This document shows, one piece after another, positions 12,262 to 24,713 of a DNA stretch of 24,713 nucleotides. A program made the position numbers and the translations under genes. The DNA lies in the IMG/VR virus record IMGVR_UViG_2563366822_000008. One strand, written 5' to 3'. Under the pieces are notes generated by a model. The model did not search any database, was not told the DNA's origin, and saw only the letters and a program-made list of their open reading frames with translations. Source of the DNA: a virus (Duplodnaviria > Heunggongvirae > Uroviricota > Caudoviricetes). The first letter of the stretch is position 1; each line of letters begins with the position of its first letter.

Positions 12262-13005
12262 ATGACACAGATAGAATCAGCGATTCTGGCGCACGCCCGG
12301 CGATGTGCGCCAGCGGAGTCGTGCGGCTTCGTGGTAAGCACGCCGGAGGGGGAAAGATATTTTCCCTGCGTGAATATCTCCGGTGAGCCGGAGGATTATT
12401 TCCGGATGGCTCCGGAGGACTGGCTGCAGGCAGAAATGCAGGGTGAGATTGTGGCGCTGGTCCACAGCCACCCCGGTGGTCTGCCCTGGCTGAGTGAGGC
12501 CGACCGGCGGCTGCAGGTGCAGAGTGATTTGCCGTGGTGGCTGGTTTGCCGGGGGGCGATTCACAAGTTCCGCTGTGTGCCACATCTTTCCGGGCGGCGC
12601 TTTGAGCACGGGGTGACGGACTGTTACACGCTGTTCCGGGATGCTTATCATCTGGCGGGGATTGAGATGCCGGATTTTCATCGCGAGGATGACTGGTGGC
12701 GTCACGGTCAGAATCTCTATCTGGATAATCTGGAGGCCACAGGGCTGTATCAGGTGCCGTTGTCATCAGCACAACCGGGCGATGTGCTGCTGTGCTGTTT
12801 TGGTTCATCGGTGCCGAATCATGCCGCCATTTACTGTGGTGATGGCGAGCTGCTGCACCATATTCCTGAACAACTGAGCAAACGAGAGAGGTACACCGAC
12901 AAATGGCAGCGACGCACACACTCCCTCTGGCGTCACCGGGCATGGCACGCATCTGCCTTTACGGGGATTTACAACGATTTGGCCGCCGCATCGACCTTCG
13001 AGTGA
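12262..13005 (+). CDS. K: Tail tip assembly protein K (JAB/MPN metalloprotease-like plus NlpC/P60-like domains)
   Basis: MTQIESAILAHARRCAPAESCGFVV...HSHPGG (JAMM-type H-x-H motif) and a Cys/His peptidase-like second half. The 3' end overlaps the start of I. Confidence 0.85.
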   Translation: MTQIESAILAHARRCAPAESCGFVVSTPEGERYFPCVNISGEPEDYFRMAPEDWLQAEMQGEIVALVHSHPGGLPWLSEADRRLQVQSDLPWWLVCRGAIHKFRCVPHLSGRRFEHGVTDCYTLFRDAYHLAGIEMPDFHREDDWWRHGQNLYLDNLEATGLYQVPLSSAQPGDVLLCCFGSSVPNHAAIYCGDGELLHHIPEQLSKRERYTDKWQRRTHSLWRHRAWHASAFTGIYNDLAAASTFE

Positions 13006-13550
13006 AAACGGGGTCCGAAGCCATCCGGGCGCTGGCCATGCAGAACCCGGCGTTTCGTCAGAAACTGAGCGACGGCTGGTACCAGGTACGCATTGCCGGG
13101 CGTGATGCAGGTGAAACCGAATTGTCTGCCCGTCTTAATGAGCCGCTGGCAAATGGTGCCGTGATCCACATCGTGCCGCGTCTGGCGGGAGCTAAAAGTG
13201 GCGGTGTGTTTCAGGTGGTGCTGGGGGCGGCGCTGATTGCGGTGGCATGGTGGAACCCTGTGGGCTGGCTGGGTGCCGCGGCTGTATCGGGCATGTATGC
13301 GGCAGGGGCCAGTATGATCCTGGGCGGAGTGGCGCAGATGCTGGCACCGAAAGCCAGGACGCCCACGGCAGCAAGTACAGATAACGGCAAACAGAACACC
13401 TATTTCTCCTCACTGGATAACATGGTTGCCCAGGGCAATGTTCTGCCGGTTCTGTACGGTGAAATGCGCGTGGGGTCGCGGGTGGTATCTCAGGAGATCA
13501 GCACAGCAGATGAAGGTGATGGTGGGCAGGTTGTGGTGATTGGTCGCTGA
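12903..13550 (+). CDS. I: Tail tip assembly protein I
   Basis: MAATHTLPLASPGMARICLYGDLQRFGRRIDL... and the C-terminus NGKQNTYFSSLDNMVAQGNVLPVLYGEMRVGSRVVSQEISTADEGDGGQVVVIGR match lambda I. Confidence 0.85.
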   Translation: MAATHTLPLASPGMARICLYGDLQRFGRRIDLRVKTGSEAIRALAMQNPAFRQKLSDGWYQVRIAGRDAGETELSARLNEPLANGAVIHIVPRLAGAKSGGVFQVVLGAALIAVAWWNPVGWLGAAAVSGMYAAGASMILGGVAQMLAPKARTPTAASTDNGKQNTYFSSLDNMVAQGNVLPVLYGEMRVGSRVVSQEISTADEGDGGQVVVIGR

Positions 13551-13567
13551 TGAAAAACGTTTATGTG

Positions 13568-13598
13568 AAACCGCCTCCGGGCGGTTTTGTCGTTTATG
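13568..13598 (+). terminator. Hairpin with T-rich tail between I and J (possible attenuator)
   Basis: AAACCGCC-TCCG-GGCGGTTT (13568-13587) followed by TGTCGTTTAT. The T-tract is interrupted, so any termination is probably partial. Confidence 0.35.
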
Positions 13599-13609
13599 GA
13601 GCGTGAGGA

Positions 13610-16600
13610 ATGGGTAAAGGCAGCAGTAAGGGGCATACTCCGCGCGAAGCGAAGGACAACCTGAAGTCCACGCAGCTGCTGAGTGTGATCGATGCCATCA
13701 GCGAAGGGCCGGTTGAAGGTCCGGTGGATGGATTAAAAAGCGTGCTGCTGAACAGTACGCCAGTGCTGGACAGTGAGGGGAATACCAATATCTCCGGCGT
13801 CACGGTGGTGTTCCGGGCCGGTGAGCAGGAGCAGACACCGCCGGAGGGATTTGAATCCTCCGGCTCCGAGACGGTGCTGGGTACGGAAGTGAAATACGAC
13901 ACGCCGATCACCCGCACCATCACGTCGGCAAACATTGACCGACTGCGTTTTACCTTCGGCGTGCAGGCACTGGTGGAAACCACCTCAAAGGGGGACAGGA
14001 ATCCGTCGGAAGTCCGCCTGCTGGTTCAGATCCAGCGTAATGGTGGCTGGGTGACGGAAAAAGACATCACCATTAAGGGTAAAACCACTTCACAGTATCT
14101 GGCCTCGGTGGTGGTGGGTAACCTGCCGCCGCGCCCGTTCAATATCCGGATGCGCAGGATGACGCCGGACAGCACCACAGACCAGCTGCAGAACAAAACG
14201 CTCTGGTCGTCATACACCGAAATTATCGATGTGAAACAGTGCTACCCGAACACGGCACTGGTCGGCGTGCAGGTGGACTCGGAGCAGTTCGGCAGCCAGC
14301 AGGTGAGCCGTAATTATCATCTGCGCGGGCGCATTCTGCAGGTGCCGTCGAACTATAACCCGCAGACGCGGCAATACAGCGGTATCTGGGACGGAACGTT
14401 TAAACCGGCATACAGCAACAACATGGCCTGGTGTCTGTGGGATATGCTGACCCATCCGCGCTACGGCATGGGGAAACGTCTTGGTGCGGCGGATGTGGAT
14501 AAATGGGCGCTGTATGTCATCGGCCAGCATTGCGAGCAGTCGGTGCCGGACGGTTTTGGCGGCACGGAGCCGCGCATCACCTGTAATGCGTACCTGACCA
14601 CACAGCGTAAGGCGTGGGATGTTCTCAGTGATTTCTGCTCGGCGATGCGCTGTATGCCGGTATGGAACGGGCAGACGCTGACGTTCGTGCAGGACCGACC
14701 GTCGGATAAGGTGTGGACCTATAACCGCAGTAATGTGGTGATGCCGGATGATGGCGCGCCGTTCCGCTACAGCTTCAGCGCCCTCAAGGACCGCCATAAT
14801 GCCGTTGAGGTGAACTGGATTGACCCGGATAACGGCTGGGAGACGGCGACAGAGCTTGTGGAGGACACGCAGGCCATTGCCCGTTACGGTCGTAACGTCA
14901 CGAAGATGGATGCCTTTGGCTGTACCAGCCGGGGGCAGGCACATCGCGCCGGGCTGTGGCTGATTAAAACAGAACTGCTGGAAACGCAGACCGTGGACTT
15001 CAGCGTGGGCGCAGAAGGGCTTCGCCATGTGCCGGGCGATGTCATTGAAATCTGTGATGATGACTATGCCGGTATCAGCACCGGCGGGCGCGTGCTGGCG
15101 GTAAACAGCCAGACCCGGACGCTGACGCTCGACCGTGAAATCACGCTGCCATCCTCCGGTACCACGCTGATAAGCCTGGTTGACGGAAGTGGCAATCCGG
15201 TCAGCGTGGAGGTCCAGTCCGTCACCGACGGCGTGAAGGTGAAAGTGAACCGGGTTCCTGACGGCGTTGCTGAATACAGCGTGTGGGGGCTGAAGCTGCC
15301 GACGCTGCGCCAGCGCCTGTTCCGCTGCGTGAGTATCCGTGAGAACGACGACGGCACGTATGCCATCACCGCCGTGCAGCATGTACCCGAAAAAGAAGCC
15401 ATCGTGGATAACGGGGCGCACTTTGACGGCGACCTGAGCGGCACGGTGAATGGCGTCACGCCGCCCGCGGTGCAGCACCTGACTGCCGAAGTCACCGCAG
15501 ACAGTGGGGAATACCAGGTGCTGGCCCGCTGGGACACGCCGAAGGTGGTGAAGGGCGTGAGCTTCCTGCTCCGTCTGACCGTAACAGCGGATGACGGCAG
15601 TGAGCGGCTGGTCAGCACGGTCCGGACGGCGGAAACCACATACCGCTTCAGGCAACTGGCGCTGGGGAACTACAGGCTGACAGTCCGGGCGGTAAATGCG
15701 TGGGGGCAGCAGGGCGATCCGGCGTCGGTATCGTTCCGGATTGCCGCACCGGCAGCACCGTCGAGGATTGAGCTGACGCCGGGCTATTTTCAGATAACCG
15801 CCACGCCGCATCTTGCGGTTTATGATCCGACGGTACAGTTTGAGTTCTGGTTCTCGGAAAAGCGGATTACCGATATCAGGCAGGTTGAAACCACAGCCCG
15901 CTACCTTGGCACGGGGCTGTACTGGATAGCCGCCAGTATCAATATCAAACCGGGCCATGATTATTACTTTTATATCCGCAGTGTGAACACCGTTGGCAAA
16001 TCGGCATTCGTGGAGTCCGTCGGTCGGGCGAGCGATGATGCGGAAGGTTACCTGGATTTTTTCAAAGGCCAGATAACCGAATCCCATCTCGGCAAGGAGC
16101 TGCTGGAAAAAGTCGAGCTGACGGAGGATAACGCCAGCAGACTGGAGGAGTTTTCGAAAGAGTGGAAGGACGCCAACGATAAGTGGAATGCCATGTGGGC
16201 TGTCAAAATTGAGCAGACCAAAGACGGCAAACATTATGTCGCGGGTATTGGCCTCAGTATGGAGGACACGGAGGAAGGCAAACTGAGTCAGTTTCTGGTT
16301 GCCGCTAACCGTATCGCATTTATTGACCCGGCAAACGGGAATGAAACGCCGATGTTTGTGGCGCAGGGCAACCAGATATTCATGAACGACGTGTTCCTGA
16401 AGCGCCTGACGGCCCCCACCATTACCAGCGGTGGAAATCCACCGGTATTTTCCCTGACATCAGACGGAAAGCTGACCGCTAAAAATGCGGATATCAGTGG
16501 CAGTGTGAATGCGAACGCCGGGACGCTCAACAATGTCACGGTAAATGAAAACTGTACGATTAAGGGCATGCTGGAGGCGACTCAGGTCAGAGGTGACTTC

Positions 16601-17023
16601 GTTAAAGCTGTATCCAAATCATTTCCGAAACAGGCTGGTACGTGGGGTAACACGGAAACACCAAACGGGACGGTTACAGTCACCATAAGCGATGATCATA
16701 ACTTTGACCGTCAAATCATTATTCCGCCCATTATCTTTAACGGAATAGCGTATAGCGATCCGGGAAGTGGTAATAACCCGGGAGGTACAAGATACACGGG
16801 TTATGGTTTTGAAGTTCGCAAAAACGGTGTATTAATCGCATCCAGAGAAACTAAAGGGGCCATTCCCGGTAGCTACAGTGCGGTTATTGATATGCCGAGT
16901 GGCAGGGGAAGCGTCACTCTGGAGTTTAAGGTTTTCCATAAAGGCAATCAGTGGGCAGGTAATATCACCGACTGTACGGTGATTGTGACCAAAAAAGCCG
17001 CTTCCGGCATCAGTATTCGTTGA
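13610..17023 (+). CDS. J: Central tail fibre / host specificity protein J (about 1137 aa)
   Basis: Size, position and the N-terminus [24 protein letters not shown] match lambda J. RBS GGAGCGTGAGG. The last ~140 aa diverge from lambda J as I recall it. Confidence 0.9.
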
Positions 17024-17044
17024 AATTGTTATAACCCATATAAG

Positions 17045-17069
17045 GGCACCAGAAATGGTGCCTTTTTTA
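17045..17069 (+). terminator. Intrinsic terminator after J
   Basis: GGCACC-AGAAAT-GGTGCC hairpin (17045-17062) followed by TTTTTT (17063-17068). Confidence 0.65.
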
Positions 17070-17092
17070 TTGCAGAAAAGCGAGAGGTAATT

Positions 17093-17692
17093 ATGCGTAA
17101 AGTTTGTGCAGCCATTTTGTCCGCAGCCATTTGTCTGGCCGTATCCGGTGCGCCTGCATGGGCGTCTGAACATCAGTCCACGCTGAGCGCGGGGTATCTT
17201 CATGCCCGGACCAACGTTCCCGGCAGTGATGATCTGAACGGGATTAACGTGAAATACCGTTATGAGTTTACGGATACGCTGGGGCTGGTGACGTCATTCA
17301 GCTATGCAGGAGACAAGAATCGCCAGCTGACCCATTACAGCGATACCCGCTGGCATGAAGATTCCGTTCGTAACCGCTGGTTCAGCGTAATGGCGGGGCC
17401 GTCTGTGCGCGTGAATGAATGGTTCAGCGCGTATGCGATGGCGGGTGTGGCTTACAGCCGTGTGTCGACTTTCTCCGGGGATTATCTCCGCGTAACTGAC
17501 AACAAGGGGAAAACGCACGACGTGCTGACCGGAAGTGATGACGGTCGCCACAGCAACACGTCTCTGGCGTGGGGGGCTGGCGTGCAGTTTAACCCGACCG
17601 AATCCGTGGCCATTGATATTGATTATGAAGGCTCCGGCAGTGGCGACTGGCGCACTGACGGTTTCATCGTGGGTGTCGGTTATAAGTTCTGA
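17093..17692 (+). CDS. lom: Outer membrane beta-barrel protein Lom (Ail/Lom/OmpX family)
   Basis: Signal peptide MRKVCAAILSAAICLAVSGAPAWA, alternating beta-strand pattern, C-terminal GVGYKF aromatic terminus. Position after J as in lambda. RBS GAGAGG. Confidence 0.85.
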   Translation: MRKVCAAILSAAICLAVSGAPAWASEHQSTLSAGYLHARTNVPGSDDLNGINVKYRYEFTDTLGLVTSFSYAGDKNRQLTHYSDTRWHEDSVRNRWFSVMAGPSVRVNEWFSAYAMAGVAYSRVSTFSGDYLRVTDNKGKTHDVLTGSDDGRHSNTSLAWGAGVQFNPTESVAIDIDYEGSGSGDWRTDGFIVGVGYKF

Positions 17693-17719
17693 TTAGCCAG
17701 GTAACACAGTGTTATGACA

Positions 17720-17746
17720 GCCCGCCGGTTCAGGCGGGCTTTTTTG
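17720..17746 (+). terminator. Intrinsic terminator after lom
   Basis: GCCCGCC-GGTTCA-GGCGGGC hairpin (17720-17739) followed by TTTTTT (17740-17745). Confidence 0.7.
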
Positions 17747-17756
17747 TGGGGTGAAT

Positions 17757-20700
17757 ATGGCAGTAAAGATTTCAGGTGTACTGAAAGACGGCACAGGAAA
17801 ACCGGTACAGAACTGCACAATCCAGCTGAAAGCAAAACGTAACAGCACCACGGTGGTGGTGAACACGGTGGCCTCTGAAAATCCGGATGAAGCCGGGCGT
17901 TACAGCATGGACGTTGAGTACGGTCAGTACAGCGTTATTCTGTTGGTGGAAGGCTTCCCGCCGTCACATGCCGGGACCATCACCGTGTATGAAGATTCTC
18001 AACCCGGTACGCTGAATGATTTTCTCGGTGCCATGACGGAGGATGATGCCCGTCCTGAGGCACTGCGCCGTTTTGAACTGATGGTGGAAGAGGTGGCGCG
18101 TAACGCGTCCGTGGTGGCACAGAACACGGCAGCCGCGAAGAAGTCAGCCAGTGATGCCAGCACATCTGCCCGTGAGGCGGCAACCCATGCGACTGATGCT
18201 GCAGGCTCAGCACGCGCAGCCAGCACGTCAGCCGGACAGGCCGCGTCGTCGGCTCAGTCAGCATCTTCCAGCGCAGGAACGGCATCAACAAAGGCCAGTG
18301 AAGCATCGAAAAGTGCTGCTGCTGCAGAGTCCTCAAAAAGCGCGGCAGCTACCAGTGCCGCTGCGGCGAAAACGTCAGAAACGAATGCGGCAGCGTCACA
18401 ACAATCAGCAGCCACTTCTGCATCCGCCGCGACCACGAAGGCGTCAGAAGCAGCCACCTCAGCCCGGGATGCGGCGGCCTCAAAAGAGGCAGCGAAATCA
18501 TCAGAAACGAACGCATCATCAAGCGCCAGTAGTGCCGCTTCCTCGGCAACGGCGGCAGGCAATTCCGCGAAGGCGGCAAAGACGTCTGAGACAAACGCCA
18601 GGTCTTCTGAAACGGCAGCGGGACAGAGCGCCTCGGCTGCGGCAGGCTCAAAAACAGCGGCTGCATCATCTGCCAGTGCCGCCTCAACAAGTGCCGGGCA
18701 GGCCTCAGCCAGTGCCACCGCTGCCGGAAAGTCGGCAGAAAGTGCCGCCTCGTCTGCTTCAACAGCCACAACGAAGGCTGGCAAAGCCACTGAACAGGCC
18801 AGTGCAGCAGCGAGGTCTGCTTCCGCAGCGAAGACATCCGAGACGAACGCGAAAGCGTCGGAAACCAGCGCAGAATCCTCAAAAACGGCTGCCGCATCGT
18901 CCGCCAGTTCGGCGGCTTCATCGGCATCATCGGCGTCAGCTTCAAAAGATGAGGCGACCAGACAGGCGTCAGCAGCGAAGGGCAGCGCCACGACAGCATC
19001 CACGAAGGCGACAGAGGCTGCTGGCAGTGCGACAGCGGCAGCACAGAGCAAAAGTACGGCAGAAACCGCGGCAACGCGCGCCGAGACAGCGGCAAAACGG
19101 GCAGAGGATATTGCATCCGCCGTGGCGCTTGAGGATGCGAGCACGACGAAAAAGGGGATAGTCCAGCTCAGTAGTGCGACCAACAGCACTTCCGAGTCAC
19201 AGGCGGCAACGCCAAAAGCCGTTAAGGCCGCGTATGACCTGGCTAACGGGAAATACACCGCACAGGATGCAACGACAGCACAGAAAGGGATAATCCAGTT
19301 AAGCAGCGCGACCAACAGCACGTCTGAAACGCTGGCGGCAACGCCAAAGGCAGTAAAAGCAGCCAATGACAATGCTGAGAAACGTCTGCAGAAAGATCAG
19401 AACGGTGCGGATATCCCTGGCAAAGATACCTTTACGAAAAATATTGGTGCCTGCCGTGCCTTCGGTGGGTCAGTAAGCACAACAACAGGAAACTGGACGA
19501 CTGCACAGTTTATCGAGTGGCTGGATTCTCAGGGAGCATTTAACCATCCCTACTGGATGTGCAAGGGGTCCTGGTCTTATGGCAATAATAAAATCATTAC
19601 TGATACTGACTGCGGTAATATTCATCTCGCCGGAGCTGTCATTGAAGTAATGGGGATAAAGTCAGCGATGACGATCCGCATTACCACACCGACCACCTCC
19701 ACTGGTGGTGGAACAACTAACGCCCAGTTTACCTATATTAATCACGGAACAGATTATTCACCTGGCTGGCGAAGGGACTATAACTCCAGAAATAAGCCAA
19801 CGGCATCAGAGATCGGGGCGTTACCGTCAGGTGGAACAGCAGTATCATCAGTTAATCTGGCTTCAAAAGGTCGGGTAACCGCGCTGACAGACAATACGCA
19901 GGGGGCAGCAGGTCTTGAGTTATACGAGGTGTATAACAACGGATATCCAACAGCGTATGGAAATATCATTCACCTGAAAGGGAGGACAGCCGTTGGCGAA
20001 GGTGAGTTACTCATCGGCTGGAGTGGTACAAGCGGTGCTCATGCTCCGGCATTTATTCGTTCACGACGGGATATGACCGACGCAAACTGGTCGCCGTGGG
20101 CGCAGCTTTACACCTCGGCTCATCCTCCTGCAGAGTTTTATCCAGTCGGTGCACCAATCCCGTGGCCATCAGATACCGTTCCGTCTGGTTATGCCCTGAT
20201 GCAGGGGCAGACTTTTGACAAATCTGCATACCCGAAACTTGCAGTTGCTTATCCGTCAGGCGTGATCCCTGATATGCGTGGCTGGACGATTAAGGGCAAG
20301 CCCGCCAGTGGTCGGGCCGTATTATCTCAGGAACAGGACGGCATTAAATCGCACACCCACAGCGCCAGCGCATCCAGTACGGATTTGGGGACGAAAACCA
20401 CATCGTCGTTTGATTACGGAACCAAATCCACGAATAACACCGGGGCGCATACCCATAGTATTAGCGGGACCGCAAATAGTGCCGGTGCGCACCAACACAA
20501 GAGTTCCGGTGCATTTGGTGGCACGAACACGAGCATTTTCCCTAATGGTTATACCGCGATTTCAAATCTAAGCGCGGGGATTATGAGCACAACAAGCGGT
20601 AGTGGCCAGACTCGTAATGCAGGGAAGACATCATCAGATGGTGCTCATACCCACTCGCTGTCCGGTACTGCTGCAAGCGCAGGCGCACATGCACATACTG

Positions 20701-20831
20701 TCGGTATTGGTGCTCATACGCACTCCGTTGCGATTGGTTCACATGGACACACCATCACCGTTAACGCTGCTGGTAACGCGGAAAACACCGTCAAAAACAT
20801 CGCATTTAACTATATTGTGAGGCTTGCATAA
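17757..20831 (+). CDS. stf: Side tail fibre protein Stf (about 1024 aa)
   Basis: N-terminus [26 protein letters not shown]... and the His-rich C-terminus (GAHTHS...[28 protein letters not shown]...[11 protein letters not shown]) match lambda Stf as recalled. Long Ala/Ser/Thr-rich centre. The GTG at 17751 offered by the track is less likely than ATG 17757. Confidence 0.85.
19150..19370 (+). repeat. Two tandem copies of a tail-fibre repeat unit (KGI[VI][21 protein letters not shown]) within stf
   Basis: Direct repeat seen at both protein and DNA level, first copy about 19150-19240 and second copy about 19280-19370, diverged at synonymous and some replacement sites. Confidence 0.8.
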
Positions 20832-21406
20832 TGGCATTCAGAATGAGTGAACAACCACGGACCATAAAAATTTATAATCTGCTGGCCGGAACTAATGAAT
20901 TTATTGGTGAAGGTGATGCATATATTCCGCCTCATACAGGTCTGCCAGCAAACAGTACCGATATTGCACCGCCAGATATTCCGGCTGGTTTCGTGGCTGT
21001 TTTCAACAGTGATGAGTCATCGTGGCATCTCGTTGAAGATCATCGGGGTAAAACGGTTTATGACGTGGCTTCCGGCGACGCGTTATTTATTTCTGAACTC
21101 GGTCCGTTACCGGAAAATGTTACCTGGTTATCGCCGGAAGGGGAGTTTCAGAAGTGGAACGGCACAGCCTGGGTGAAGGATACGGAAGCAGAAAAACTGT
21201 TCCGGATCCGGGAGGCGGAAGAAACAAAAAACAACCTGATGCAGGTAGCCAGTGAGCATATTGCGCCGCTTCAGGATGCTGCAGATCTGGAAATTGCAAC
21301 GGAGGAAGAAATCTCGTTGCTGGAAGCATGGAAAAAGTATCGGGTATTGCTGAACCGTGTTGATACGTCAACTGCACAGGATATTGAATGGCCAGCACTG
21401 CCGTAG
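20831..21406 (+). CDS. tfa: Tail fibre assembly protein Tfa
   Basis: 191 aa, near-identical by eye to lambda Tfa ([39 protein letters not shown]...). Start overlaps the stf stop (TAATG). Confidence 0.9.
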
Positions 21407-21482
21407 GGTAAAACATATAAATTCTATAATTAGATGTATCTTTCCATTTACGGCAAGGAAGGGGGCTTGGAAGACGTAAAGC

Positions 21483-21505
21483 ATCTCACACCGAGATTAT
21501 TTTTT
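21483..21505. terminator. Short hairpin plus T-tract at the convergent tfa / recombinase junction
   Basis: ATCTC-ACACC-GAGAT (21483-21497) followed by TATTTTTTAT. Weak 5-bp stem; the T-tract overlaps the recombinase stop codon. Confidence 0.3.
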
Positions 21506-22094
21506 ATATGTCAGGTGTCTGAAGTTTTGCTTTGGCTCTTAAAATGGTTTGCCGCGAGGTTTTGAATTCCCGGGCAATGGCACTTATACTTACACCTGAC
21601 TTAATTCGTTCGAATACCGCCTGTTTCTGTTCTTCATTTAACACAGGTGGTCGACCAAAACGTTTCCCTGCGCCGCGGGCTCTTACTATCCCGGAATGAG
21701 TGCGTTCAAGTAAAAGGTCTCGTTCAAATTCAGCGACTGCTGAAATTACTTGCATCATCATTTTTCCTGTTGGACTGGTCAGGTCAATGCCCCCCAATGC
21801 TAAGCAATGCACTCTGATACCTGTTTCGGTCAGTTGTTCCACTGTTTTCCTGATATCCATTGCATTACAACCAAGGCGATCCAGTTTTGTCACAATCAAT
21901 TGATCACCACATTTCAGGCGAGCAAGCAACCGGTTAAAACCAGGACGCTCACTGGTTGCTGCTGAGCCGCTAATGTGTTCTTCGATTATTTGCTGAGGTT
22001 TGATTTTAAAACCTGCACTTTCGATTTCCCGGCGTTGATTTTCGGTGGTCTGATCCAGCGTTGATATCCGACAGTAAGCAAAAATTCGAGACAT
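21504..22094 (-). CDS. pinQ: Serine recombinase (resolvase/invertase family), Pin-like
   Basis: 196 aa. N-terminal catalytic region with the nucleophile in YCRISTLDQ, and a C-terminal helix-turn-helix ([17 protein letters not shown]). The specific symbol is assigned from gene order (tfa-pin-small gene-MFS) and is uncertain; the family call is firm. Confidence 0.85.
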
Positions 22095-22231
22095 AGTGAG
22101 ACTCTATACGAAATTGGTGTTCATATCATAATGCATCTCAGAAAATAATTATGATTATTTTTGTGCATATTTGTATGTACACGTTCGAAAATAAACGAAT
22201 GCGTATGCAACTCCGTAATTTTGGTGAAACC

Positions 22232-22245
22232 CAAAATCGATTTTG
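22232..22245. promoter_or_regulatory. 14-bp perfect palindrome CAAAATCGATTTTG upstream of the recombinase gene
   Basis: Read directly; about 140 bp upstream of the pin start codon on the template side. A second inverted repeat AACTCG-N10-CGAGTT lies at 22260-22281. Confidence 0.3.
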
Positions 22246-22410
22246 TGAAAAATGGCTTTAACTCGGTTTGCTTTTCGAGTTCCGGGCGGACTCAAGGAAG
22301 AAGAATAGTGTTGCGTGTTATTTTAACCAGATTTCAAGTTGTTTGGTCGTGGAAAAGTGGAGCAAAATGTTGTTAAAGTGGAGAAATGATAAAAAAGTAA
22401 GTTTATTATA

Positions 22411-22644
22411 TTACATTTTACCATTTAAATTTTGGTTGTCTTTAAGAACTGATATCGCTGTTTGTAATAATTCTTTGTTATCCAGCCATGATTTTTTCTT
22501 TATGTTTCCTTCAATGTAATCAAGCAATGTTCTGGTATTGATAGGTCTTCCCTGTTTTGCTACTTCCACTACAGCATCCCCTAGGATAATTCTTACTTCA
22601 GGAAGCTGCGCAGGGAACCACTTTAGGGTGTCTTTTGATTTCAT
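22411..22644 (-). CDS. ydfK: Small prophage protein, YdfK/YnaE-like (77 aa)
   Basis: The ORF lies in an AT-rich segment. The internal ATG at 22644 has an AGGA RBS 8-9 nt upstream and gives 77 aa (MKSKDTLKWFPAQLPEV...); the track's longer 88-aa start at 22677 lacks an RBS. Naming rests on size and locus synteny recalled from E. coli K-12, not on a search. Confidence 0.5.
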   Translation of the reverse strand: MKSKDTLKWFPAQLPEVRIILGDAVVEVAKQGRPINTRTLLDYIEGNIKKKSWLDNKELLQTAISVLKDNQNLNGKM

Positions 22645-23150
22645 GAAGATATTCCTTAAAATATTATTGATTTTCATTGCGATATTGTATGTCTGATTCA
22701 GGATATGTTGACTTATACATCGGTTTTGTCTGGGTTATTGGATATGCCAATCCCTAATTTTATTAGGGCATGACTAAAAATGCTGAATATGATAAGGAGA
22801 GATGTGATTATCAGTATGCTGTTCATATAGCCTCGAATTAGTAATGTGTTATATATGATATAGTTGACAATTTTTATCTTGGGTGTTCTTAAAGTTCGTA
22901 AATAAACATTGTCGTTTCAGGTATACAGGAATGCTAACAGGTGGCAGCAAAAATCAGGCGGTTTATGGCGCAAGCTGAAGCGGCAACTGCAAACTATCTT
23001 ATGCAGAGACTCTACACGGATTGGGTTTAAAAGTATACATAGATAACAGTTTTTATCTGAAAAAGAAAAATATCAAGGTGATATAGCCTATATGCCTTTG
23101 ATGCGGAGGAATGAATGTGATGGGAGTGATGTATCTGAATAGTTGAAAAA

Positions 23151-23184
23151 CCGCAGACACGCCTTATGCAAGAACGTGCTGCGG
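23151..23184 (-). terminator. Hairpin followed by a T5 run on the - strand (candidate minus-strand terminator or leader structure)
   Basis: CCGCAG(A)CACG-N13-CGTGCTGCGG, a 10-bp stem with one bulge. On the - strand it is followed immediately by TTTTT (the + strand reads AAAAA at 23146-23150). Confidence 0.4.
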
Positions 23185-23429
23185 TTGGCTGGTAAATTTT
23201 TCGATAGTGTGAGTATTGAATGATTTCCAGCCGTTCTTGATTTTACGCATAAATCCATGAAAAAACTACTTATCTGTTGGGGAGTTTTTTTGGGGCATAT
23301 ATGGGACAGAAATAGGCCCCAGATAGACACTGAGATCGAACTTAGGATGCTTTTTAAAAAATGCAACTATCTGAAAAAACCTAGAAAACGCCAAGGAAAC
23401 CACAGGATGGGAAAAAACACCTGTGAATT

Positions 23430-24713
23430 ATGGATTTCCAGTTATATTCGCTCGGCGCAGCGTTGGTGTTTCATGAAATATTTTTTCCTGAATCATCAAC
23501 GGCAATGGCGTTAATTTTGGCAATGGGAACCTACGGTGCAGGTTATGTGGCGCGTATTGTCGGAGCATTTATTTTCGGCAAAATGGGCGACAGAATAGGG
23601 CGTAAAAAAGTGCTCTTTATTACCATCACCATGATGGGGATCTGTACCACCTTAATTGGTGTGTTACCGACCTATGCACAGATTGGTGTTTTTGCCCCCA
23701 TCTTGCTGGTGACGCTGCGTATTATTCAGGGGTTGGGTGCAGGTGCGGAAATTTCCGGTGCCGGTACGATGCTGGCGGAATATGCACCAAAAGGTAAGCG
23801 CGGAATTATCTCCTCATTTGTAGCTATGGGAACTAACTGCGGAACCTTGAGCGCAACGGCAATCTGGGCCTTTATGTTCTTCATTCTCAGTAAAGAGGAA
23901 CTGCTGGCGTGGGGATGGCGTATACCGTTCCTGGCGAGCGTTGTCGTGATGGTCTTTGCTATCTGGTTACGTATGAATCTGAAAGAAAGCCCGGTCTTTG
24001 AGAAGGTTAATGACAGCAACCAACCCACAGCAAAACCTGCACCTGCTGGTAGCATGTTCCAGAGCAAATCCTTCTGGCTGGCAACAGGGCTGCGTTTTGG
24101 TCAGGCGGGTAACTCCGGGTTAATTCAGACTTTCCTTGCAGGCTATTTAGTGCAGACGTTATTGTTTAACAAAGCAATTCCAACAGATGCATTGATGATT
24201 AGTTTGATTCTCGGCTTTATGACCATTCCGTTCCTTGGTTGGTTATCCGATAAAATTGGTCGCCGGATCCCGTATATTATTATGAATACCTCCGCGATTG
24301 TGCTGGCATGGCCAATGCTTTCTATCATTGTAGATAAAAGCTATGCCCCGAGCACCATTATGGTTGCACTGATTGTGATTCATAACTGTGCGGTGCTGGG
24401 ATTATTTGCTCTGGAAAACATTACCATGGCAGAAATGTTCGGCTGTAAAAACCGCTTTACCCGGATGGCTATTTCTAAAGAAATTGGTGGTCTTATCGCT
24501 TCCGGTTTTGGTCCTATCCTGGCGGGTATTTTCTGCACCATGACGGAATCCTGGTATCCGATCGCCATTATGATCATGGCATATTCAGTAATTGGTTTAA
24601 TCTCTGCGCTGAAAATGCCAGAGGTGAAAGACCGTGATTTAAGTGCGCTGGAAGACGCTGCGGAAGATCAACCGCGTGTTGTAAGAGCTGCGCAACCTTC
24701 CAGAAGTCTGTAA
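23430..24713 (+). CDS. ydfJ: MFS transporter (metabolite:H+ symporter-like), N-terminally truncated; candidate host gene interrupted by the prophage
   Basis: 427 aa with multiple hydrophobic helices and the MFS signature GKMGDRIGRKK after the first helix present. In intact family members this motif follows TM2, so about one helix plus the N-terminus appears to be missing. The symbol is a context-based guess. Confidence 0.8.
   Translation: MDFQLYSLGAALVFHEIFFPESSTAMALILAMGTYGAGYVARIVGAFIFGKMGDRIGRKKVLFITITMMGICTTLIGVLPTYAQIGVFAPILLVTLRIIQGLGAGAEISGAGTMLAEYAPKGKRGIISSFVAMGTNCGTLSATAIWAFMFFILSKEELLAWGWRIPFLASVVVMVFAIWLRMNLKESPVFEKVNDSNQPTAKPAPAGSMFQSKSFWLATGLRFGQAGNSGLIQTFLAGYLVQTLLFNKAIPTDALMISLILGFMTIPFLGWLSDKIGRRIPYIIMNTSAIVLAWPMLSIIVDKSYAPSTIMVALIVIHNCAVLGLFALENITMAEMFGCKNRFTRMAISKEIGGLIASGFGPILAGIFCTMTESWYPIAIMIMAYSVIGLISALKMPEVKDRDLSALEDAAEDQPRVVRAAQPSRSL

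Follow-up and report, generated by a model that had tools for sequence, protein, structure and literature searches.

A phage 434-type receptor-binding cassette at the 3′ end of a lambda-like J gene

Gene J and its surroundings

The window analysed here is a whole stretch of 24,713 nucleotides from a virus of the Caudoviricetes (IMG/VR record IMGVR_UViG_2563366822_000008). Its tail genes follow the order I-J-lom-stf-tfa, as in lambda, according to the open reading frames and to Pfam matches for Lom, the tail-fibre N-terminal domain and the tail-fibre assembly protein. Taken as a whole, the window is closest to mEp460_ev081 (98% identity over 93% of the window), and positions 12900-16579 align at 92% to the I-J region of lambda. 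The features that are relevant to this study are the following.

13610..17023, plus strand: gene J, tail tip attachment / central tail fibre protein, 1137 aa, intact (open reading frame list and translation)
13610..16516, plus strand: lambda-like J body, comprising the hub, FNIII domains, helical shaft and most of the beta-prism fibre (sliding identity)
16430..16560, plus strand: junction zone, holding the GC3 change point, the start of a near-perfect shared tract and the first lambda mismatches
16517..17020, plus strand: 434-type receptor-binding cassette, aa ~970-1137, with 37% amino acid identity to lambda and 95% to 434
17042..17065, plus strand: intrinsic terminator-like hairpin and T-run just past the J stop (terminator scan)
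17093..17692, plus strand: lom, Ail/Lom outer-membrane protein (Pfam Ail_Lom, E = 1e-122)

The domain names used for the J body are those of the lambda structure paper (PMC11101478). Upstream of the tip, J contains the Pfam families FNIII-A_GpJ, Phage-tail_3, Ig_J, Ig_J_second and Phage_Tail_Tip, each above its cut-off. On the 3′ side of lom lie a side tail fibre gene (1026 aa) and then a tail-fibre assembly gene, both assigned by Pfam. The terminator-like hairpin falls within the tract that is common to the cassette donors, and the phage 434 record has an annotated terminator at this position. A minus-strand open reading frame at 16832-17203 (123 aa), which spans the J stop, the terminator and the start of lom, was treated as spurious and is unannotated in all relatives examined. 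A promoter scan of 16400-17800 returned no sites, and no invertible segment is evident near stf, tfa and pinQ, where the inverted repeats are only short, chance-level pairs.

Boundaries and type of the J tip

Alignment of J with the corresponding genes of lambda (NC_001416) and phage 434 (OL657226) bears out the original prediction that most of J tracks lambda J and that its C-terminus departs from it. Protein identity to lambda in 50-aa windows is 0.90-1.00 up to aa ~950, and past this point it drops stepwise, to 0.74 at aa 951-1000 and then to 0.50, 0.42, 0.34, 0.30 and 0.26. DNA identity to lambda, taken per 100-nt bin, is 0.88-1.00 up to 16509, with 15810-15909 as the sole bin under 0.91, and it is 0.72 in 16510-16609 and 0.43-0.51 further downstream. 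The start of the divergence had been placed at 16600; the DNA is indeed divergent there, but the real boundary lies ~40-80 nt upstream, the first lambda mismatches being found at 16517 and dense mismatches from 16561. The motif that had been given as the last lambda-like stretch already departs from lambda, which has NVTIAENCTINGTLRAEKI.

The junction zone corresponds to lambda J aa ~940-985. The tract that is near-perfectly common to Perceval and the Stx2c phages starts within this zone, at 16442, and lambda aa 964, which has been described as the "last stretch of identity" and is used by engineers for swaps of gpJ tips (PMC11338833), maps to nt 16499. The left boundary of the cassette coincides both with the GC3 change point and with this swap site at lambda aa 964, and the right boundary is the J stop.

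When the last 150 aa of J are compared separately from the remainder, they split from the lambda-type tips (~36-37% identity) and match phage 434, to which they are 95.3% identical without indels and with loops of equal length. They are 100% identical to the tips of Perceval, ev099 and many Stx1a- and Stx2c-converting phages of O157, including Stx2c_2409, and every other sampled tip type is at most 47% identical to the tip here in one comparison. Homologous tips were compared in 243 phage records; their identity to the last 150 aa is at least 90% in 74 records and below 60% in 169, and no record lies between these values; judged by these sequences, J tips form discrete types. Relative to lambda, the cassette carries indels at four loop regions (+2, +6, +1 and +2/-6 residues), and the sites of these indels, lambda 1012, 1048, 1077 and 1107, are hot spots of indels and diversification (Maddamsetti et al., PMC6646904).

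The J protein of phage 434 (UMO75286.1), which is the classical, OmpC-dependent h434 host-range allele, is also 1137 aa long and has no indels relative to the J here. The two genes are 95.7% identical in nucleotide sequence over their full length, and phage 434 and the lambda h434 imm21 hybrid match the whole J gene at 95.6-95.7%. Of the 24 residues at which the two proteins differ, 11 are located between aa 943 and aa 1137, and the last 150 aa contain seven (1004, 1008, 1009, 1019, 1049, 1099 and 1115), most of which lie close to the loop hot spots. The J here belongs to a sister subtype that it shares with Perceval, ev099, cdtI and the Stx1a/Stx2c phages and that is 89-92% identical to 434 in nucleotide sequence inside the cassette. 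The Lom allele of phage 434 is 96% identical to the Lom here. It is highly probable that the 3′-terminal ~500 nt of J (about 16517-17020) encode a receptor-binding domain of the 434 type in place of the LamB-binding domain of lambda.

The feature is a well-known and very common J receptor-binding cassette of the 434 type, and nothing about it is new in kind. With thresholds of at least 80% DNA identity and at least 80% coverage, 2091 of the 5426 complete E. coli genomes searched (~39%) contain its DNA. Knowledge of the 434/OmpC host-range allele dates from the 1970s, a curated Pfam family covers the domain, and structures are available for two sister types. Practical use of the assignment is limited to annotation and to the choice of gpJ tips for engineered lambda particles.

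Base composition and exchange of the cassette

The 3′ end of J shows the predicted shift towards AT. The last 450 nt have a GC content of 0.473 and a GC3 of 0.45, compared with 0.553 and 0.63 for the last 450 nt of lambda J, and the extra AT enrichment therefore belongs to the cassette here. A scan across the gene divides the shift into two steps, because GC starts at 0.600 (first 2100 nt) and is 0.537 in 15710-16480 before it reaches the value of the last 450 nt, with GC3 values of 0.74, 0.64 and 0.45 for the same three segments. Only the second step is specific to the cassette; the first (0.60 to ~0.53, from ~15800) is also present in lambda and 434 and lies outside the exchange. The maximum-likelihood change point of GC3 is codon 940, nt 16430 (0.72 to 0.47), and the GC3 of the last 150 codons differs both from that of the rest of J (p = 1e-9, Fisher) and from that of the preceding 300 codons (p = 1.7e-4, Fisher). 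Within the whole window, the GC content of 16600-17023 (0.465) ranks only at the 12th percentile, because the region past tfa is far more AT-rich.

A low GC content could arise from the amino-acid make-up of a loop-rich binding domain and not from a separate history, and the drop of GC1 from 0.60 to 0.48 is what such an effect might produce. However, the largest change is seen at third codon positions, GC2 is nearly flat (0.46 to 0.49), and homologous tips with the same fold span GC3 values of 0.45-0.69, all of which makes this explanation very unlikely. The GC3 of the 434-type cassette, 0.45-0.47, is the lowest among the sampled tip types, the others having values of 0.50-0.69.

A six-way alignment points to a separate history of the tip. 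The sequence of Stx2c_2409 is identical to the window over 16442-17058 except for one base, at 16687 (99.8%), whereas the first 1.8 kb of its J have only 56-85% DNA identity to the window; because the tip is near-identical while the N-terminal part of J is so different, the cassette appears to have been exchanged horizontally. Perceval likewise matches the window in all but one base, over 16442-17101. The opposite pattern is seen in mEp460_ev081, whose J body is 93-99% identical to the window nearly throughout (a single bin is at 0.87) and whose identity falls to 89-92% (a difference of 8-11%) inside about 16500-16960, the part in which its subtype is that of 434. The tip and the rest of J thus have conflicting histories, in both directions. 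The original prediction of a horizontally exchanged receptor-binding domain is supported by these alignments, in which the tip is shared with Stx2c_2409 despite a divergent J N-terminus, and by the bimodal distribution of identities among the phage records. This mosaicism agrees with the conclusion of Maddamsetti et al. (2018) that J residues 960-1132 constitute the specificity region and evolve as an independent recombining module (PMC6646904), and the locus offers a clean textbook example of cassette exchange at this region.

It might instead be supposed that the divergence arose in place, by fast diversifying selection on an ancestral lambda-like tip and without horizontal exchange, because the specificity region is known to be under diversifying selection and to be an indel hot spot (PMC6646904). 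This supposition can be given almost no weight, since the boundary is sharp, the shift in composition sits at synonymous sites, a near-identical cassette is found in phages with far more divergent J bodies, and no identities between 60% and 90% were observed among the 243 phage records. Under horizontal exchange, the cassette would move among lambdoid phages and prophages by homologous recombination at the conserved sequences on either side of it, probably the J fibre sequence around aa 940-985 on the left and, on the right, the region of the J stop, terminator and lom.

The block that is unlike lambda extends beyond J, spanning 16520-17570 and covering most of lom, and the Lom here has 46% amino acid identity to that of lambda. 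Inclusion of lom in the swap was considered and rejected. The same Lom allele is 95-96% identical in most of the sampled phages that carry four or five other tip types, and only 87% identical in VT1-Sakai and 2G7b. The non-lambda block therefore reaches ~17570 because lambda lom is the outlier and, as the allele here is common across tip types, the tip alone is the mobile unit.

Predicted fold and receptor of the tip

The C-terminal part of J (aa 1001-1136, nt 16610-17017) matches Pfam family PF12421, Ig_GpJ_C ("C-terminal receptor binding domain"), with a score of 90.9 bits against a gathering threshold of 26.2 (E = 9.6e-26). The last 180 aa were modelled with AlphaFold2 as a monomer, although the domain itself is trimeric, from a 24-sequence alignment of diverse tips that was drawn from a protein search yielding mostly partial enterobacterial J fragments. 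The model is all-beta, with a mean pLDDT of 81.5, and the tip alignment shows a conserved framework with variation concentrated in the loop regions. A Foldseek search of the PDB with this model retrieved the lambda central fibre (8xck/8xcj, closed / open on LamB; E = 8e-16, TMq 0.69-0.73, 42% identity) and the A8 gpJ713 with and without the OmpC of EDL933 (9wcb/9wca; E = 4e-15, 47-48% identity), and the next unrelated match was far behind (E = 5e-5). A sequence search of the PDB returned the same lambda and A8 entries. The J tip is thus predicted to fold like the solved Ig-like receptor-binding domain of lambda, and the comparison with J C-termini of differing specificity that the original prediction envisaged gives a match to both the lambda gpJ-LamB and the A8 gpJ-OmpC structures.

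The lambda gpJ domain on LamB (PDB 8XCJ/8XCK; PMC11101478) belongs to the same Pfam family as the tip here, has the Ig-like fold predicted for it, shares conserved framework residues with it (among them the FDRQ and DMP.G.G motifs) and likewise forms the end of a lambda-like fibre. It differs in sequence (~37% identity over the last 150 aa), in GC3 (0.63 compared with 0.45) and in the expected receptor, which is OmpC and not LamB for the tip here. Of all PDB entries, A8 gpJ713 with the OmpC of E. coli EDL933 (9WCA/9WCB) matches the J here best in sequence (E = 3e-97 over 260 aa). The gpJ chimeras engineered from A8 and 1A2, in which a natural gpJ C-terminus is carried on a lambda J body, use OmpC, and their fusion point at lambda aa 964 falls in the junction zone seen here (PMC11338833). 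However, the A8 tip is a cassette type different from that here (47-51% identity), as is the 1A2 tip in the supplement of that paper, so that their OmpC data are not directly transferable; no 434-type peptides were found among the Eligo A8 and 1A2 chimeras of that supplement. In phi330 (PMC12502783) and Gifsy-1 (PMC12312913), which use OmpC, the J tip likewise sets porin use on a conserved J body. The Lom of phi330 is 95% identical to the Lom here and similarly adjoins the J tip, whereas its tip is only 45% identical to the tip here, and phi330 is reported to differ from 434 in its predicted OmpC-contacting loops (PMC12502783).

Phage 434 and the lambda h434 hybrid use OmpC, and replacement of lambda J with that of 434 switches lambda to OmpC (PMC3509688, PMC11101478). 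In the record of the lambda h434 imm21 hybrid, the sequence maps to lambda up to position 17619 and to 434 from position 17637 (J codon ~705-711). Because aa 710-950 of J hardly differ between lambda and 434, the tip is the obvious determinant of host range; the hybrid also carries the lom, stf and tfa of 434, and it alone cannot pin host range to the last 170 aa. By homology to 434, the receptor of the J tip here is most probably OmpC. The expected host range of the prophage, as inferred from 434, would be OmpC-dependent and independent of LamB and maltose regulation.

The original prediction had derived a receptor other than LamB from the divergence of the C-terminus. This receptor assignment is plausible on the grounds of the 95.3% identity to 434, but the step from divergence to a non-LamB receptor is unsafe. 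The tip of Phi21 is only 47% identical to that of lambda, and the native receptor of Phi21 is nevertheless LamB, with a single mutation adding the use of OmpC (PMC11336670); divergence from lambda alone therefore cannot exclude LamB. Lambda itself gains the use of OmpF by a few mutations (PMC6646904, PMC11336670), and receptor use in the J family can switch with very few mutations. The literature yielded no experimental receptor data for the exact subtype, and none for mEp460 and the PhiR phages.

The solved gpJ structures of lambda and A8 suggest how infection may be triggered. At the end of the central tail fibre, three copies of the tip would assemble as an Ig-like trimer, whose four variable bottom loops would enter the extracellular mouth of a porin trimer, most probably that of OmpC. 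Engagement of the porin would spread the bottom of the trimer, and this spreading would be relayed up the fibre via the beta-prism and the helical shaft, so that the tail tip opens for DNA ejection.

The same exchanged 434-type cassette could also have a shifted specificity in the subtype here, directed to certain OmpC alleles only (for example, those of the O157 type and not those of the K-12 type) or to another porin such as OmpF or LamB. The seven substitutions relative to 434 lie mostly beside loop hot spots, exact copies of the tip are carried by Stx1a/Stx2c phages of O157, the A8 and 1A2 gpJ chimeras distinguish one OmpC allele from another (PMC11338833), and the Phi21 tip, which looks by eye like the OmpC-binding A8 type, natively binds LamB. 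Nevertheless, the tip is 95% identical to that of 434 and has no indels, and phages of this subtype are recorded on K-12 hosts, namely Ayreon (K12) and phi458 (MC1061), which makes such a shift unlikely as an account of the locus. That the subtype is tuned to a set of OmpC alleles other than that of the 434 tip, or has gained a second porin, is conceivable but rather unlikely; if this were the case, the two subtypes into which E. coli prophages divide, ~90% identical to each other, would represent functionally distinct host-range classes.

Mosaic structure of J and its receptor-binding tip

Comparison of J, the tail tip attachment gene, with its counterpart in the Stx2c-converting phage Stx2c_2409 divides the gene into at least three mosaic segments, which differ in their level of identity as follows.

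13600 to about 15392: J segment 1, 56-85% identity to Stx2c_2409
15393-16441: J segment 2, 91-97% identity
16442-17058: J segment 3, 99.8% identity

Because identity to Stx2c_2409 rises stepwise along the gene, J contains a second recombination boundary, which lies near codon 595.

The tip of the phage 21 (Phi21) J protein (OL657228, 15693-19175) resembles, as judged by eye and without a computed identity, the OmpC-binding tip of A8 (PDB 9WCA), and LamB has been reported as the native receptor of Phi21. The type of cassette carried may not predict receptor class in the gpJ tip family.

The end of J is also overlapped by an open reading frame on the opposite strand.

16832-17203, minus strand: 123-aa ORF, antisense to the stop codon of J, the terminator and the start of lom

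This ORF, which is annotated in none of the relatives examined, is probably spurious.

Lom and the side tail fibre gene

Lambda Lom shares 44-46% amino acid identity with each of the Lom proteins sampled from other lambdoid phages, whereas these non-lambda proteins are 85-99% identical among themselves. The odd lom in the comparison of 16520-17570 with lambda is lambda's own.

Further to the right lies the side tail fibre gene, the product of which contains Phage_fiber_2 repeats and a Collar domain (Pfam).

17751-20831: stf, side tail fibre gene

Within stf, a stretch of more than 1 kb (18100-19400) has a very strong AT skew (0.33-0.50) and a GC content of approximately 0.62.

Match to the Qin prophage junction at the right end

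The right end of the window (21400-24713) matches the junction of the E. coli Qin prophage, and several genomes match it at 99.7-99.9%. It contains the following genes.

within 21400-24713: tfaQ, Qin-junction gene
21504-22094, minus strand: pinQ, Ser recombinase
beyond pinQ: ydfK and ynfT, Qin-junction genes
23430 to the window end: ydfJ, MFS transporter gene

Because of this match, the window seems to be a lambdoid prophage of full length that sits at the Qin/ydfJ locus, and not a free phage genome. Its overall backbone is mEp460-like, and J and the flanking tail region are lambda-like.

An 83-aa ORF (22268-22519) has no match in Pfam. The lowest GC content in the entire window (0.32, in the 424-nt interval starting at 22101) is found at approximately 22100-22500, just past pinQ in the ydfK/ynfT area.
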